Positions 57,432-64,000 of a DNA stretch of 64,000 nt are shown here, piece by piece. A program made the position numbers and the translations under genes. The number at the start of each line of letters is the position of its first letter. Positions within the stretch are counted from its first letter, which is position 1. The stretch spans positions 35,098 to 99,097 of the forward strand of contig CACPPU010000001.1 of NCBI GenBank assembly GCA_902635945.1. The letters are read 5' to 3'. Source of the stretch: an uncultured Candidatus Actinomarina sp. (GTDB taxonomy: Bacteria > Actinomycetota > Acidimicrobiia > Actinomarinales > Actinomarinaceae). The notes beneath the pieces are model-generated. The model searched no databases, had not been told where the DNA came from, and was given only the letters and a program-made list of their open reading frames with translations.

Positions 57432-58067
57432 TTATATGTCTTTTAAATTATTCTTTTTCCATTCATCTATTTTTTGATGATTTCCGGACAAAAGTACCTC
57501 TGGTACTTTCTTATTTTTAAAGATTTCAGGTCTTGTATAGACAGGATAATCAATTTTATTATCTGTAAAAGTTTCACTTTTTAATGATTCAGGATTTCCT
57601 AACACATCTGGGATTTTCCTAATCAATGCTTCTAATAAATACAAAGCTGGGATTTCTCCCCCGGAAACAACAGATTGGCCAATTGATATTTCATAATCAG
57701 AATGAATTTCTAAAATTCTTTGATCATAACCTTCATATCTACCACATACTAAATTAATTGACTTGTATTCAAGTAATTCACTTATAAGATTTTCATTTAA
57801 CTGTTGTCCTGATGGGGTTAGAAAAACATTAATATCTGCCTTGCTGGAAGTTATAGCTTTGTCTAATGGTTCTGGCATCAAAACCATTCCTGGCCCACCG
57901 CCATATGGAGCATCATCAACTTGTTTATATGTTCCTATGCCATAATCTCTAAGATTTGTTGAATTTATAGCTACTAAATTATTTTTTAATGCTTGATTAA
58001 TAATCCCGGCATTTTTCCATTCTTCAATTAGATTTGGAAATAATGTTATTACATTGTAAGAATTCAT
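57432..58067 (-). CDS. trmD: tRNA (guanine-N1)-methyltransferase
   Basis: VDDAPYGGGPGMVL, CGRYEG, VSGGE, YTRP, VPEVLLSGNH. Confidence 0.97.
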   Translation of the reverse strand: MNSYNVITLFPNLIEEWKNAGIINQALKNNLVAINSTNLRDYGIGTYKQVDDAPYGGGPGMVLMPEPLDKAITSSKADINVFLTPSGQQLNENLISELLEYKSINLVCGRYEGYDQRILEIHSDYEISIGQSVVSGGEIPALYLLEALIRKIPDVLGNPESLKSETFTDNKIDYPVYTRPEIFKNKKVPEVLLSGNHQKIDEWKKNNLKDI

Positions 58068-59899
58068 TTTTTTTCTAAAGAATTTTTTGTATCGCTAAAT
58101 TTTGTATATAAAGTATTTCTCAAAATTGGATTTTTATTTTCAGACTCAATTATTTGAATAAATTGATCTTCAGTTGTTTCTTGCCCATGATCTGCTCCTG
58201 AAGCTCTGCTAATGTTTTCATTGATCAAAGTACCACCTAAATCATTAACACCAGCATGAAGGAGTTTGCCTGCTCCATCATGACCCAATTTCACCCAGCT
58301 TGCTTGAATGTTGTCTATTGAATTTACAAAGTAAATTCGCGCTAATGAATGAATAAGAACAACTTCATCCCAAGTAGGTCCTGGCATACTTTTACCCTGT
58401 AAGTAAATAGGAGAACCCATGTGAACAAAAGGAAGAGGTACAACTTCAGTAAATCCATTTGTTTTGCTTTGAACATTTTTTATTAATGAAAAATGATTAA
58501 CCCATGAATCTATATCATCAATATGACCAAACATAATTGTTGCTGTAGATTTTATCCCTAAGTTATGAGCTACTTCCATTACATATGCCCATTGCGAAGA
58601 AGTTATTTTATCAGGGCAAAGATATTTTCTAACTCTATCGTCTAATATCTCAGCAGCAGTTCCGGGAAGTGTGTTTAGTCCAGCTTTTTTTAACAGCCTT
58701 AAATACTCCTCAACACTCAAACCAATAGTCTCTGCACCTTGCCAAATTTCTAAAGGAGTGAAACCGTGAATGTGCATTTCTGGAACAGAAGCTTTTATAT
58801 CTTTTACCATTTTTAAATAAAACTCTCCCGTATAGTCAGGATGAATGCCGCCTTGTAAACAAACTTCTGATGCACCCATATCATATGCTTCGACAGTTCT
58901 TTCAACCACTTCTTGTATATCAATGTTGTATGGTTTTTCTTTTAAATTTAAACTATTAGGACCTTTAGAAAATCCACAGAAACCACATTTGTAATAGCAT
59001 TGATTCGTATAATTAATATTTCTATTCTTTACATAAGAAACATTATTTCCGTTTTTTAAAAAATTTAACTCGTTAGCAACATTTGCAATATCATTTATTT
59101 TTTCTCCTGCGGTATTAAACAATACTCTTAAATCATCATTATTAATTTGATATCCATCTAATACCCTTTTCAATAATGAGTCAATTTCAGAATGGTTGAT
59201 TTGACTTTTATTGTTAAAAACAAAATTATTTAAATTTGGGATATTTTTCCCACTACCAGGAGACCAACTTGTCTCTTCTCTTCTAAAGCCTCTGACATTT
59301 CTAGTTTTTAAGAATCTAAAAAATCTTTCTTTATCAAATTCTTCTCTTGCCTCATCAATAGAAAATACGGGAGAAAGCAAAGTTCGCTCATAGAAATTTA
59401 GACCTTCTAGGTTTTGAAGTTCTAATATCTGTTCGGAACTCCAGTCCCTGAGGAGTAAATCTGAAACTCCTGCATTAGCAAATTCAATTGCTTCCTCAAT
59501 TGTTTCAACGTATGTCGATGTTATAAAACTTGTTTTTGAGTTAATAGATTTAAGGAATTGTAGTTCTGATTTAGTAGAAATTAAAATAGTGTGTGGCTTT
59601 AGTCTATCGATAACTTCTAATGCGATTTCAATATTATTTTTAAAAATGTAAATCAATCTTTTTGGATGTACAGATTTAAACTCCTTCCAGTTTTCGTCAG
59701 TAACCATCCATGCGTCTGCATTTATAGTGATATCCTTTGATACTGTTTGAAATTCCTTATTATGTAAATTATCCGTATTTACTGGTACATCACTTTTTAT
59801 TAAGAATGTAGAAGTTCCCTCTTTTTTTCTTGAATTTAAATATATTTCGTTGTCGTTATCACATGGTCTGATTCGAAGAAAAGAAATGTTATTGTTCAT
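58064..59899 (-). CDS. cofH: FO synthase subunit CofH with extra N-terminal domain
   Basis: NRNINYTNQCYYKCGFC, EVCLQGG, PGTAAEIL, NIQASWVK, NDLGGTL.NENISRASGA; start set at ATG 59899. Confidence 0.92.
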   Translation of the reverse strand: MNNNISFLRIRPCDNDNEIYLNSRKKEGTSTFLIKSDVPVNTDNLHNKEFQTVSKDITINADAWMVTDENWKEFKSVHPKRLIYIFKNNIEIALEVIDRLKPHTILISTKSELQFLKSINSKTSFITSTYVETIEEAIEFANAGVSDLLLRDWSSEQILELQNLEGLNFYERTLLSPVFSIDEAREEFDKERFFRFLKTRNVRGFRREETSWSPGSGKNIPNLNNFVFNNKSQINHSEIDSLLKRVLDGYQINNDDLRVLFNTAGEKINDIANVANELNFLKNGNNVSYVKNRNINYTNQCYYKCGFCGFSKGPNSLNLKEKPYNIDIQEVVERTVEAYDMGASEVCLQGGIHPDYTGEFYLKMVKDIKASVPEMHIHGFTPLEIWQGAETIGLSVEEYLRLLKKAGLNTLPGTAAEILDDRVRKYLCPDKITSSQWAYVMEVAHNLGIKSTATIMFGHIDDIDSWVNHFSLIKNVQSKTNGFTEVVPLPFVHMGSPIYLQGKSMPGPTWDEVVLIHSLARIYFVNSIDNIQASWVKLGHDGAGKLLHAGVNDLGGTLINENISRASGADHGQETTEDQFIQIIESENKNPILRNTLYTKFSDTKNSLEKK

Positions 59900-61010
59900 T
59901 GTGTTCTTTTGGATATCCATCTGTATCAATAATATTATTAACTTTTTCAAAAATTTTACTATTTAACCATTCTTTTTTTATAAATTCTGGATAAACGGGT
60001 AATCTCTTTTTTAAGAGTTGACCTGTACTTGAAATATCTAATTTTAATTTATTTATATTTGGCCATAAATGATCTGGATTTACCCAATCAATAGTTAATG
60101 GAGATATTCCACCTAAATCATTAATGCCGCTTTTTAAAAATATTGTTATATCCGGTGAAAGATTTGGTGGAACTTGAAGAGATATATGTGAAGGGGCATA
60201 AATTCTAGTTGTGGCAATGATTCTTAAAAATAAATCATTTGTTATTTCAGAATTATTCTTCATTAATGTATTTTTCTTTGCTCTGAAATTTTGTAATATT
60301 ACTTCCTGAATTGCAGAGTTCTTTTTTACATAATCAATTAAATTTGATATATCATTTACAATTTCTTCTTTTGTTGAGGTTAAACCAAGAAGTAATCCAG
60401 TTGTGACTGGATATTTTTCTTCTAATGCATTGTTAAGGGTATCCAACCTTAAATCAATATATTTAGTATCTGTTTTGTAATGAGCTTTTCCCCTATCGTA
60501 TATATTTTTTGAAAATGACTCAATCATAACCCCACCAGATGGTGAGTGTTTTTTTAACTCCTTTATCTCTTGTTTGCTCATTAAACCAGGGTTGGCGTGA
60601 GGGAAAAGATTAAATTTCTCATTTACAACCTTCATAGAACTAATTAAATAATCATGAGTTGAGGAATGGCCTAATTCTTTAAGTTGGGTTAAAGCAAAAT
60701 CCCATTTGAGCTCCGGCTTATCTCCTAAAGTAAACAAAGCTTCATAGCAACCAGCTTCATCACCAGCTTCTGCTATTGAGAGAACCTCTTCTTGATTTAA
60801 ATAAGTTCCACCCTCTTTTGGAGATTTTACAAATGTACAATATCCACAATTATCTCTACACATTGTTGTTAGTGGAATAAATACTTTAGGGCTATATGTA
60901 ATATTGTCGCCAAAGTAATTTGTTTTCTTCTCATAAGCATTAGCCAACAGTTCTTCAGTTGAAACTTCTCCAAAGATGGAATCATTAATTTTTCTAGTTA
61001 ATTCTGTCAT
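59889..61010 (-). CDS. cofG: FO synthase subunit CofG
   Basis: ITYSPKVFIPLTTMCRDNCGYC, EALFTLGDKPE, QEVILQNF, QVPPNL, DLGGISP. Confidence 0.96.
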   Translation of the reverse strand: MTELTRKINDSIFGEVSTEELLANAYEKKTNYFGDNITYSPKVFIPLTTMCRDNCGYCTFVKSPKEGGTYLNQEEVLSIAEAGDEAGCYEALFTLGDKPELKWDFALTQLKELGHSSTHDYLISSMKVVNEKFNLFPHANPGLMSKQEIKELKKHSPSGGVMIESFSKNIYDRGKAHYKTDTKYIDLRLDTLNNALEEKYPVTTGLLLGLTSTKEEIVNDISNLIDYVKKNSAIQEVILQNFRAKKNTLMKNNSEITNDLFLRIIATTRIYAPSHISLQVPPNLSPDITIFLKSGINDLGGISPLTIDWVNPDHLWPNINKLKLDISSTGQLLKKRLPVYPEFIKKEWLNSKIFEKVNNIIDTDGYPKEHNEQ

Positions 61011-61079
61011 AAATATTGGTTTTAAGGTATATTATTAGTTGATTGTAACAACAATTAATCAATAATCTTGTGAGGGTTA

Positions 61080-62084
61080 ATGGCAAATGTTTCTTTAGTT
61101 GGCTTTGGGAGAATAGGTAGAGATCTATTTAGGCAAACATTGGGTGATACAGATATAAACATTGTATCTATTTCTGACACTGCTGATAAAGCTAACTTAA
61201 TTTATTTATTAAAGTACGACTCAATTTACGGAAAGCTAGATGCAGAAATTGAGGAATCTGAAACTGGTATTGTTGTTAATGGTAAAGAAATCATATTTAA
61301 TTCTTGGAAAAATGGTGACGAAGCAAATTGGGATGAACTAAACACTGACATCGTAGTTCTTGCAACTGGTAGACCAAAGACTAAAGAAGAAGTTGATAAA
61401 CATTTATCAAAAGGTTGTAAAAAAGTTATCGTTGCCTCAACTCCCGAAAATTTTGAAGATATACAAATATATGTGCCAGGTGCAAACGATGAAGCTATAG
61501 ATTTAAACTCAAGTGTATTTTCCTTAGGTTCCAATACAGCAAATGCTGTTGCACCTATTCTTAAAGCTTTAGATAGTAAAGTTGGGGTTGAAAGAGCATT
61601 TCTCACGACTGTTCATGGATATTCAAATTCAAACCGTTTAGCAGATGTAGCAGGTGAAGGTTTCAGACTTAACAGAGCAGCTGGTGAAAATATTATTCCA
61701 AGTATTACTAAGTCTTCTGAAGTTATATCAAATGTTCTTCCATTCATTCAAGGAAAGATAGCTTCCTCTTCTATGACCGTACCAATTCCTGACGGAAGTA
61801 CAGTTGACTTGACAATTGATATCAAAAACGAAACAAGTATTGAAGATATTAATATAATAATTGAGGATGCTTCCAATTCTGATTTAAAAAACATAATCGG
61901 ACTTACATATGATCCAATTGTTTCTTCTGATGTTGTAAGAAGCACGCTCTCTGGTTTAGTAGACGGATTAGCAACAATGGGTATTAATAATAAAAAAATT
62001 AAACTCATTATTTGGTTTGATAATGGTTGGGGTTATGCAGCTAGAATTGTCGATACAGTGAAAAAGCTTGGTCAGGTGTTATAA
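61080..62084 (+). CDS. GAPDH-like protein lacking the catalytic cysteine
   Basis: GFGRIGR, YLLKYDSIYG, WFDNGWGY retained, but SLGSNTANA replaces SNASCTTNC. Confidence 0.9.
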   Translation: MANVSLVGFGRIGRDLFRQTLGDTDINIVSISDTADKANLIYLLKYDSIYGKLDAEIEESETGIVVNGKEIIFNSWKNGDEANWDELNTDIVVLATGRPKTKEEVDKHLSKGCKKVIVASTPENFEDIQIYVPGANDEAIDLNSSVFSLGSNTANAVAPILKALDSKVGVERAFLTTVHGYSNSNRLADVAGEGFRLNRAAGENIIPSITKSSEVISNVLPFIQGKIASSSMTVPIPDGSTVDLTIDIKNETSIEDINIIIEDASNSDLKNIIGLTYDPIVSSDVVRSTLSGLVDGLATMGINNKKIKLIIWFDNGWGYAARIVDTVKKLGQVL

Positions 62085-63089
62085 GTGGGTAATGTAGCCA
62101 TAAACGGTTTTGGAAGAATTGGACGTTCTATATTAAGAATCATTGTTGAAAATAATTCTGATATAAATGTTGTTGCAATTAATGACCTCGGTAATTATGA
62201 AAATCTTGCATATCTTTTAAAACATGATTCTGTAATGGGCATTTTGGATAGTGATGTACAAGTTGATGGAGACAATCTTTTAGTTGGAGATAGAGTTATT
62301 AAACTTACCTCAATAAAAGATCCTGCTGAGCTTCCATGGAACGAATTAGATGTGGATGTTGTAATTGAATCAACTGGAATTTTTAGAGATAATGAATCCC
62401 TAAATAAACACTTAGATGCTGGTGCAAAAAAAGTATTGCTGACTGTACCACCCAAAGATGAAATTGACGCAACAATAGTTTTAGGTGTAAATGACGATGA
62501 CTTGAAGCCAGATGATAAAATCGTCTCTAACGCTTCATGTACTACAAACTGTCTAGCACCGATAGCTAAAGTACTGGATGATAATTTTGGAATCAAATCT
62601 GGTCTTATGACTACCGTTCATGCATATACTAACGATCAGGCACTGGCAGAAACAACACATAGTGACTTCAGAAGAGGCAGAAGTGCTACCCAAAATATAA
62701 TTCCTACTTCAACAGGCGCAGCTAAAGCAGTTGGTATGGTTTTACCTGAATTGAATGGTAAATTAGACGGCATGGCGATGAGAGTTCCAGTGCCAGATGG
62801 AAGTGTTGTTGATTTAGTAGTGGAGTTAGAAAAATCTGTATCTATAGATGATGTAAATAAAGCTGTAAAACAAGCTGCAGATAACGAGCTGAAAGGTATT
62901 TTAGAGTACTCTGAAGTTCCTCTTGTATCTACCGATATTTTAAATAATCCACATTCAAGTATTTATGATGCATCTTCTACACAATTATTAGAAGGAAATC
63001 ATGTCAAAGTTGTATGTTGGTACGACAACGAATGGGGTTACTCAAATAGGGTTGTAGATTTAATCGGAAATCTATTAAATAATGGATAA
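62085..63089 (+). CDS. gap: type I glyceraldehyde-3-phosphate dehydrogenase
   Basis: INGFGRIGR, SNASCTTNCLAP, TVHAYT, NIIPTSTGAA, MRVP, WYDNEWGY. Confidence 0.98.
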   Translation: MGNVAINGFGRIGRSILRIIVENNSDINVVAINDLGNYENLAYLLKHDSVMGILDSDVQVDGDNLLVGDRVIKLTSIKDPAELPWNELDVDVVIESTGIFRDNESLNKHLDAGAKKVLLTVPPKDEIDATIVLGVNDDDLKPDDKIVSNASCTTNCLAPIAKVLDDNFGIKSGLMTTVHAYTNDQALAETTHSDFRRGRSATQNIIPTSTGAAKAVGMVLPELNGKLDGMAMRVPVPDGSVVDLVVELEKSVSIDDVNKAVKQAADNELKGILEYSEVPLVSTDILNNPHSSIYDASSTQLLEGNHVKVVCWYDNEWGYSNRVVDLIGNLLNNG

Positions 63090-63498
63090 AAACCTTCCAA
63101 TCGCTCCGGAAGCAATTGGAAATTATGTAACCTATAAAAAAATTGGAAACTATGTCTACACATCTGGACATGTACCTATTACAGAACAAAAGAAATATAT
63201 AGGAAAGGTGCCAACTGAAATATCAATAGATGAAGCTTATAAAGCAGCAGAGTTATGCGCTGAACTTACAATTGCAACAATTAAAAAACACGGGTCTATT
63301 GATAACTTGCAGCCTGTGAATGTTATTGGTTTTGTAAATGCTAATGAAGATTTTGGAGATCACGCTCAAGTTCTTAACGGATTCACAGATAAACTTTCAG
63401 AATACTTTAGTGAAAAATCTACAAGATCAGCTGTAGGAGTTGCTAGCTTACCATTAAATGTATGTGTAGAAGTACAGTGTGTTTTTATCGATGAGTAA
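63082..63498 (+). CDS. RidA/YjgF family protein
   Basis: GNYV, YTSGH.P, GFVN, TRSAVGVASLP. Confidence 0.9.
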   Translation: MDKNLPIAPEAIGNYVTYKKIGNYVYTSGHVPITEQKKYIGKVPTEISIDEAYKAAELCAELTIATIKKHGSIDNLQPVNVIGFVNANEDFGDHAQVLNGFTDKLSEYFSEKSTRSAVGVASLPLNVCVEVQCVFIDE

Positions 63499-64000
63499 AT
63501 TAATAGGAATATCCACTGGTCTTAAAAATGTAGACATGGCGCCTGGTAATATTCCATGTGTTGTAATTAATCATGATTTTGTTAAAGCATGTAACAACTA
63601 TGGAAATACTGCTGTAATTTTTGGACCACACGAAAATTCAGAAACAATAGACGTATCAAAATTTGATGCAATAGTAATTTCAGGTGGTGGTGATATTAAT
63701 CCAAATATTTATGGAGAAGAAAAACTTGAAAAAACAATAAGAATTTCGGACCATAGGGATAGCACAGAGTTGACTATGCTTAAATCTGCAGAAAAACATA
63801 ATGTAAAAACTCTTGCTATATGTAGAGGACATCAATTACTAAATGTTTATAAAGGTGGAACACTTTATCAAGATCTTGAGGATAGTGGATTTACTAAAAT
63901 CAAACACGACAGACCGTTTGATGATGCACGTTCACATGTTCATGATGTAAATGTAGAAAGTAATTCAAAATTATATAAAATAATTCAAGAAAATGAAATA
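63491..64000 (+). CDS. gamma-glutamyl-gamma-aminobutyrate hydrolase family (peptidase C26), 3'-truncated
   Basis: Manual translation from ATG 63491: ISGGGDINP..YG, RD..E, LAICRGHQLLNV..GGTLYQDL. Confidence 0.9.
   Translation, partial: MSKLIGISTGLKNVDMAPGNIPCVVINHDFVKACNNYGNTAVIFGPHENSETIDVSKFDAIVISGGGDINPNIYGEEKLEKTIRISDHRDSTELTMLKSAEKHNVKTLAICRGHQLLNVYKGGTLYQDLEDSGFTKIKHDRPFDDARSHVHDVNVESNSKLYKIIQENEI

Follow-up and report, generated by a model that had tools for sequence, protein, structure and literature searches.

Two genes of the glyceraldehyde-3-phosphate dehydrogenase (GAPDH) family lie end to end in a 64,000-nucleotide stretch of the genome of an uncultured Candidatus Actinomarina sp. 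(assembly GCA_902635945.1, contig CACPPU010000001.1, positions 35,098 to 99,097 of the forward strand), the whole of which is referred to here as the window and supplies all of the coordinates given below. The first gene, which we call gapX (61080..62084, + strand), is an open reading frame (ORF) of 334 amino acids running from ATG to TAA, and encodes a GAPDH paralogue without the catalytic Cys and without both Arg residues of the substrate-phosphate sites. The second, gap (62085..63089, + strand), is an ORF of 334 amino acids running from GTG to TAA and encodes a canonical type I GAPDH, in which the catalytic and phosphate-site residues are complete. The gapX stop codon (TAA, 62082-62084) directly abuts the gap start codon (GTG, 62085-62087), so that the junction (62082..62087, + strand) contains zero nucleotides between the two genes, and a Shine–Dalgarno-like AGGTG within the 3' end of gapX (62074..62078, + strand), 6 nucleotides before the GTG, may function in the translation of gap.

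The two proteins are 37% identical across 331 residues (E 6e-83). Both contain the Pfam domains Gp_dh_N and Gp_dh_C, which are matched by gapX with E-values of 1e-24 and 4.5e-39, respectively, and gapX and gap account for all of the Gp_dh_C matches over cut-off in the assembly (1.05 Mb, 76% complete). Against TIGR01534, the curated family model of type I GAPDH, which has a cut-off of 367.2 bits, gap passes with 448.9 bits and gapX fails with 273.6 bits. The best PDB sequence matches of gapX are all GAPDHs, and the top one, 1nq5, has Ser at the Cys position; we take this entry to be an engineered mutant.

Active-site residues of gapX

Residues are numbered here as in the GAPDH of Geobacillus stearothermophilus, onto which the window proteins were mapped by alignment, and we take the functional roles of Cys149, Asp181, Arg195, Gly209 and Arg231 to be established for that enzyme. 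The position of the catalytic Cys149 (Cys152 in gap) is occupied in gapX by Asn (AAT, 61533..61535), and the two Arg residues of the substrate-phosphate sites, Arg195 and Arg231, are replaced by Leu (window residue 197; CTT, 61668..61670) and Thr (window Thr233; ACC, 61776..61778), respectively, all three codons lying on the + strand. The second Cys (Cys153; residue 156 in gap) is Ala in gapX, and further changes are found at Asp181 (to Ser), Gly209 (to Lys) and Glu314 (to Gly); in terms of motifs, gapX reads MTVP where gap has MRVP, and IIPSITKS where gap has IIPTSTGA. The motifs GFGRIGR, TVHGY and WFDN are unchanged, as are the residues Asp32, Ser148, Thr150, His176, Arg197, Thr208 and Asn313, and the presence of GxGxxG, Asp32 and Asn313 indicates that the predicted NAD site is conserved.

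The original prediction for this locus had described an abutting pair of 334-residue GAPDHs joined as TAA|GTG, the upstream copy having Asn152, Ala for the second Cys, MTVP and IPSIT while keeping GFGRIGR, TVHGY and WFDN, and all of this agrees with the ORFs, the sequence and the alignment. Its account of a lost phosphate-binding Arg was right for the change of Arg231 to Thr but incomplete, because the second loss, Arg195 to Leu, had been overlooked, as had the changes at Asp181, Gly209 and Glu314.

Judged from these residues, GAPDH chemistry by the thioester mechanism is excluded for gapX. By its domains the protein is a member of the GAPDH superfamily, but it lacks the catalytic features that define the enzyme and falls short of the curated cut-off, and classing it as a GAPDH enzyme would therefore be wrong. 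Two paralogues from the same family, erythrose-4-phosphate dehydrogenase (Epd, TIGR01532) and the ArsJ-associated GAPDH (NF033735), have NCBIfam models that match gapX weakly. Both are Cys-dependent enzymes, and both were rejected as identities for gapX, which has no catalytic Cys and scores 202.9 against a cut-off of 530.55 for the first and 249 against 450 for the second; no arsJ was read among the ORFs of 58000-64000. A GapB-like NADP enzyme was also rejected, because Asp32 is kept.

Conservation and distribution of the gene pair

A homologue search with gapX gave 2581 proteins, the best 120 of which, at 68-95% identity, were tabulated; the source names of near relatives indicate Candidatus Actinomarina, of the class Acidimicrobiia. 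All 120 homologues, and hence, with the window copy, 121/121, carry Asn in place of the Cys, Thr in place of Arg231 and Leu in place of Arg195; the altered residue states of gapX are fixed throughout these homologues and the pattern is therefore not due to chance. The ratio of nonsynonymous to synonymous substitution rates (dN/dS), calculated by the Nei–Gojobori method (NG86) for 21 pairwise comparisons of Actinomarina loci with dS < 1 for both genes, was 0.05-0.15 for gapX and 0.00-0.09 for gap. Purifying selection on gapX is strong, although approximately twofold weaker than that on gap.

Within the same genus, both genes are present and adjacent in 21 of 24 genomes, and the remaining three, which are 74-80% complete, contain neither. 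An even draw of 301 genomes was used to survey the class Acidimicrobiia. In the family to which the window belongs, two matches were found in 57 of 64 genomes, one in 2 and none in 5 (74-83% complete). Elsewhere in the class, a clear gapX orthologue, defined as a protein 51-82% identical to the query from genome G025 or as that query itself, occurs in 48 of 236 genomes from five families (35/35 in f2, 8/9 in f10, 2/7 in f15, 2/2 in f34 and 1/1 in f40, the f2 count taking in the unpublished genome G255), and the other sampled families gave ordinary gap matches only. The 48 pairs extracted from Acidimicrobiia have Asn at the Cys site of the upstream copy in every case (48/48). Arg231 is replaced by Asn or Thr in 46 of the 47 upstream copies tabulated, and Arg195 is variable. 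Position 176 in these copies is His in 34/47 and Lys in 13/47; the Lys forms, such as those of loci L016, L018 and L114, make up one subgroup that lacks the catalytic His176 and retains Asn149.

Beyond the class, scoring of 1.84 billion cluster representatives gave top non-Actinomarina matches that were enriched in Cys-less GAPDH homologues. These cluster with the window gapX (FastTree, Shimodaira–Hasegawa support 98), come from sources that include Planctomycetota, Acidobacteriota and Actinomycetota, and are always annotated as GAPDH. A profile built from the Cys-less homologues was then scanned against one genome per species, and the upstream copies at the pair loci were extracted by phmmer. 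Among the best 80 of the 581 confirmed stretches, a tandem pair is present at 79 loci, in 13 named phyla, one of them (L115) belonging to a Thermoanaerobaculum metagenome-assembled genome, and the single locus without a pair is an ordinary gap on a Falsibacillus chromosome. Two proteins among the best gapX matches, P0124 (2089 amino acids) and P0140 (1455 amino acids), contain four and two GAPDH-like stretches, respectively.

The 48 Acidimicrobiia pairs and the 79 pairs from other loci were combined into a set of 127. In every one of the 127 pairs the upstream member is the weaker match to GAPDH and has an unbroken reading frame, and the downstream member has the Cys. The spacing between the genes is ≤0 nucleotides in 99 pairs and ≤20 nucleotides in 124, the commonest arrangement being an overlap of four nucleotides (-4, ATGA).

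The upstream copy had been predicted to be a selected pseudoenzyme rather than a decaying one, and the low dN/dS, the Asn found in 120/120 homologues and in 48/48 Acidimicrobiia pairs, and the retention of the gene across families and phyla bear this out. The survey of tandem pairs and the dN/dS calculation that had been proposed as a check likewise give a multi-phylum pair, clearly neither restricted to one strain nor evolving with dN/dS near 1. A further argument, that keeping such a gene in a streamlined genome suggests function, holds in so far as the gene is retained under selection; however, it is not special to a streamlined genome, the pair being old and spread over many phyla.

Evolution of the upstream copies

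From 57 upstream and as many downstream copies, together with 14 generic GAPDH representatives, a tree was obtained by a quick search in IQ-TREE under LG+C20. The 57 upstream copies form one clade, set off by a branch with a Shimodaira–Hasegawa approximate likelihood-ratio (SH-aLRT) support of 100, and the branching within the upstream and downstream halves is largely mirrored. The single upstream clade and the mirrored groupings lead us to conclude that the pair is old and has been inherited as a unit, rather than being re-created by local duplication. In a separate tree of pair-linked and solo gap genes, likewise from a quick search and with an uncertain root, 14 solo Acidimicrobiia gap genes (L134-L147), from families that lack the paralogue, group with the generic GAPDHs and apart from the pair-linked gaps (SH-aLRT 90), a weakly supported hint, which we do not press into a claim, that pair-linked and solo gap genes are different GAPDH lineages.

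The residue states of the 127 upstream copies distinguish what defines this clade from what varies within it. Arg231 is retained in only one copy and is most often Asn (110) or Thr (13); Glu314 is retained in none and is Gly in 120; and at position 209 Gly is absent from the six most frequent residues (N, W, K, R, P and F, jointly 112/127). The loss of Arg231, the change of Glu314 to Gly and the replacement of Gly209 are the markers of the upstream clade. Position 149, by comparison, is Asn in 57 copies, Ser in 34, Cys in 26, Ala in 8, Pro in 1 and Ile in 1, and changes between Cys and non-Cys states number at least six on the tree, a rough minimum, as many of the inner forks are weak. The hallmark of the family is thus the remodelling of the phosphate sites, with loss of the nucleophile being secondary and recurrent, and this recurrence within the clade argues for a conserved function that is independent of catalysis at residue 149. 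Among the 79 upstream members from other phyla, 26 retain Cys, His and Arg195 together. The dinucleotide-binding features are kept: the Rossmann glycines are present in 123-126 of the 127 copies, position 32 is Asp in 115 and Glu in 11, and Asn313 is retained in 109. Position 176 is His in 113/127 and Lys in 14/127.

Modelled structure and dimer interface

An AlphaFold2 model of gapX, built from a 43-row family alignment, has the GAPDH fold, with a predicted local distance difference test (pLDDT) score of 90 and a predicted template-modelling (pTM) score of 0.89; the only part of low confidence is the S-loop, residues 186-203. The two-chain model of Gap with gapX gave an interface score (ipSAE) of 0.66 (0.62-0.71 in three runs), compared with 0.00 for the best of three controls, and so passes a mark that 58 of 80 solved complexes attain, as do 2 of 110 mismatched pairs. 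The partner has a pLDDT of 91 in this complex, and at least 98% of the contacts are common to the runs. The modelled interface corresponds to the large sheet-to-sheet dimer interface of GAPDH tetramers (P-axis-type), and its core contact residues (199, 203-205, 234-236 and 281-283) are identical in gapX and Gap.

The 44 positions that are predicted by the complex model to form this interface, 13% of the protein, were compared with the remainder. The predicted interface is the part of gapX that is conserved best: the mean entropy is 1.16 bits there versus 1.90 bits elsewhere (p = 3e-5), and more than half of the near-invariant positions (14/24) fall within it. The corresponding values for gap, 0.91 and 1.13, differ little (p = 0.13). 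Expressed as the excess of gapX over gap, the entropy difference amounts to 0.16 bits within the interface, against 0.80 bits outside it (p = 2e-7).

Genomic surroundings

Downstream of gap lie a Rid-family-like ORF (63082..63498, + strand; TIGR00004, 46.9 bits, under the cut-off), which overlaps the end of gap by 8 nucleotides and is probably part of the same operon, and a class I glutamine-amidotransferase-like ORF (63479..64000, + strand), which resembles gamma-glutamyl hydrolases weakly, at scores under the cut-offs, overlaps the Rid-like ORF by 20 nucleotides and runs off the window. Rid-like and gamma-glutamyl-hydrolase-like neighbours stand behind the gapX–gap pair in all three same-genus loci that were read, and the operon may have the order gapX-gap-rid-like-amidotransferase-like instead of the usual gap-pgk-tpi.

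On the other side, gapX is separated from the divergent cofG by an intergenic region (61011..61079) with promoter-like words and a GAGGG at 61072-61076, all of which is weak evidence; a promoter and terminator scan was uninformative, its promoter-like hits (61004-61033 and 61039-61066) being no more than were obtained in shuffled sequences. The cofG ORF (59889-61010) overlaps by 62 nucleotides an ORF of 628 amino acids for CofH, a subunit of FO synthase (58064-59950, - strand). The two are separate genes, yet the top-scoring model is that of the fused CofGH. The CofH model covers only residues 270-617 of this ORF, and approximately 250 of its N-terminal residues have no NCBIfam match.

Both genes are covered by contigs from four libraries of two studies that are recorded as metatranscriptomic, which is not in itself evidence of transcription. 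Three of the contigs bridge the junction, X6 (61103-62495), X8 (61548-62611) and X12 (61913-62611), without implying a single transcript, and the lack of cover by X8 and X12 across 60500-61141 carries no weight as evidence.

Discussion

We favour, at somewhat better than even confidence, the view that gapX is a partner subunit of Gap, non-catalytic but able to bind NAD(H). It is the most economical reading because it brings together the order and coupling of the genes, the Gap-like interface, the dinucleotide site, the degraded substrate sites and the repeated loss of the nucleophile. According to this proposal, gapX would be a folded GAPDH-like protein that has retained dinucleotide binding and lost GAPDH chemistry; gapX and gap would be made from one mRNA as a coupled translation unit; the two proteins would form a mixed oligomer by way of the large and conserved dimer interface of the P-axis type; and gapX would act in that oligomer as a non-catalytic subunit with a structural or regulatory, NAD(H)-sensing, role. 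The residue states, the purifying selection, the spread across phyla, the order and coupling of the genes, the single origin of the upstream clade and the conservation of the interface are established by the data; the heteromer, the binding of NAD(H) by gapX and an effect on the activity of Gap are what we infer. Roles of this kind, as a subunit of a heterotetramer and in binding NAD(H), had been suggested from the start, and the coupling of the genes, the conserved interface, the complex model and the Rossmann motif with Asp32 support them without being decisive.

Several observations weigh against such a subunit. Coupled genes need not encode one complex. The complex model may pass because of its likeness to solved GAPDH homotetramers, and it is blind to the difference between an A:B dimer and A:A or B:B dimers. 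The interface positions overlap with residues that are buried or close to the active site, and which are conserved for other reasons as well. Those upstream copies of other phyla that keep Cys, His and Arg195 (26/79) may still be enzymes. Finally, the Acidimicrobiia copies have an invariant pocket of Ser148, Asn149, Thr150, Arg197 and Thr208, which could indicate a ligand or chemistry of their own rather than a passive subunit.

The strongest competitor, which we nevertheless regard as unlikely, is that gapX is a stand-alone, homo-oligomeric NAD(H) binder, acting as a redox sensor or buffer or in some moonlighting capacity, and co-expressed with gap without forming a complex with it. The intact fold and the conserved Rossmann motif, Asp32 and Asn313 suit such a protein as well, and a conserved interface is equally suited to homo-oligomers, which the model cannot separate from mixed ones. 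However, with a core interface the same as that of Gap and genes that overlap or abut in 99/127 pairs, the two chains could scarcely fail to mix without selection to keep them apart, and the sequence of gapX carries no sign of exclusion from Gap.

It is less probable again that gapX is a neofunctionalized oxidoreductase, using NAD and a His or Lys base, but no thiol, on a substrate other than glyceraldehyde 3-phosphate. A potential base is always present at position 176, the residues Ser148, Asn149, Thr150, Arg197 and Thr208 show little or no variation in the 47 or 48 Acidimicrobiia copies, and the 26 copies from other phyla with Cys, His and Arg195 lack only Arg231 and Gly209 and could be active with another specificity. 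Nevertheless, with N, S, C, A, P or I at position 149, and at least six changes there, no common catalytic residue is found at this site; both anion sites have been remodelled differently between lineages; and, in the loci read, no pathway-specific neighbour other than gap travels with the pair. That gapX is a recent, neutral or decaying duplicate of gap is hardly credible, in spite of its being a tandem paralogue of equal length without catalytic residues, given the dN/dS of 0.05-0.15, the unbroken frame in 127/127 copies, an identity to gap of only 37% and the division of upstream and downstream copies into separate clades that split before the sampled phyla; a decaying pseudogene was accordingly rejected on the grounds of purifying selection, intact frame and membership of an old, separate clade.

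Compared with type I GAPDH (TIGR01534; the G. stearothermophilus structure, 1gd1), gapX has the same Pfam domains, length and predicted fold, and shares the Rossmann motif, Asp32, His176 and Asn313; it differs in being without Cys149, Arg195 and Arg231, in the replacement of Gly209 and Glu314, and in scoring under the family cut-off. The chloroplast enzyme provides an example of a GAPDH built from two paralogous subunits, GapA and GapB, which form an A2B2 tetramer in which both are catalytic and GapB confers regulation by a C-terminal extension. The likeness lies in the presence of two paralogous GAPDH subunits, one of which is connected with regulation in the plant, but gapX has no C-terminal extension (334 versus 334 amino acids) and no nucleophile, and does not belong to that type.

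A closer parallel may be provided by the trypanosomatid ‘prozymes’. These are reported (PMC5201418, PMC3663545) to be dead paralogues that activate S-adenosylmethionine decarboxylase (AdoMetDC) and deoxyhypusine synthase by hetero-oligomerization, the latter enzyme being a heterotetramer of impaired and inactive subunits. Prozymes resemble gapX in each being a dead paralogue of an oligomeric enzyme, maintained by selection beside an active one, and differ in being eukaryotic, with unlinked genes, whereas gapX is bacterial, present in many phyla and translationally coupled to its putative partner. Two properties by which a prozyme is recognized, the absence of essential catalytic residues and purifying selection across species, are found in gapX. 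By analogy, gapX would therefore seem functionally most like the prozymes and, more loosely, like the two-subunit chloroplast GAPDH.

A search of full-text articles outside the subscription journals, without their supplements, yielded no description of a bacterial GAPDH heteromer or of a GAPDH paralogue in bacteria that lacks the Cys. The sections consulted of PMC11836677, on Drosophila paralogues, PMC12041015, a review of aldehyde dehydrogenases, and PMC12008989, on UBA5794, do not mention a Cys-less bacterial GAPDH paralogue. As a more tentative proposal, which could well prove wrong, GAPDH in many bacteria may natively be a two-gene hetero-oligomer, in which an ancient partner, having lost the substrate-phosphate site and, more than once, the nucleophile, would form half of the tetramer as a dedicated allosteric subunit of this glycolytic step that senses NAD(H) or metabolites, a bacterial ‘prozyme’ in a textbook enzyme.

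GAPDH, among the most studied of enzymes, is assumed to form homotetramers in bacteria. A conserved, non-catalytic paralogue coupled in translation to gap would mean that many uncultured lineages, including the abundant marine Actinomarina and Marinimicrobia, construct or control this step of central metabolism in another way. Annotation is affected as well: proteins of the gapX type are named GAPDH or ‘type I GAPDH’, and pathway reconstructions thereby include an additional GAPDH that probably has no enzymatic role. The clade, in which the nucleophile has been lost repeatedly, also provides a natural series in which the origin of pseudoenzymes can be studied.

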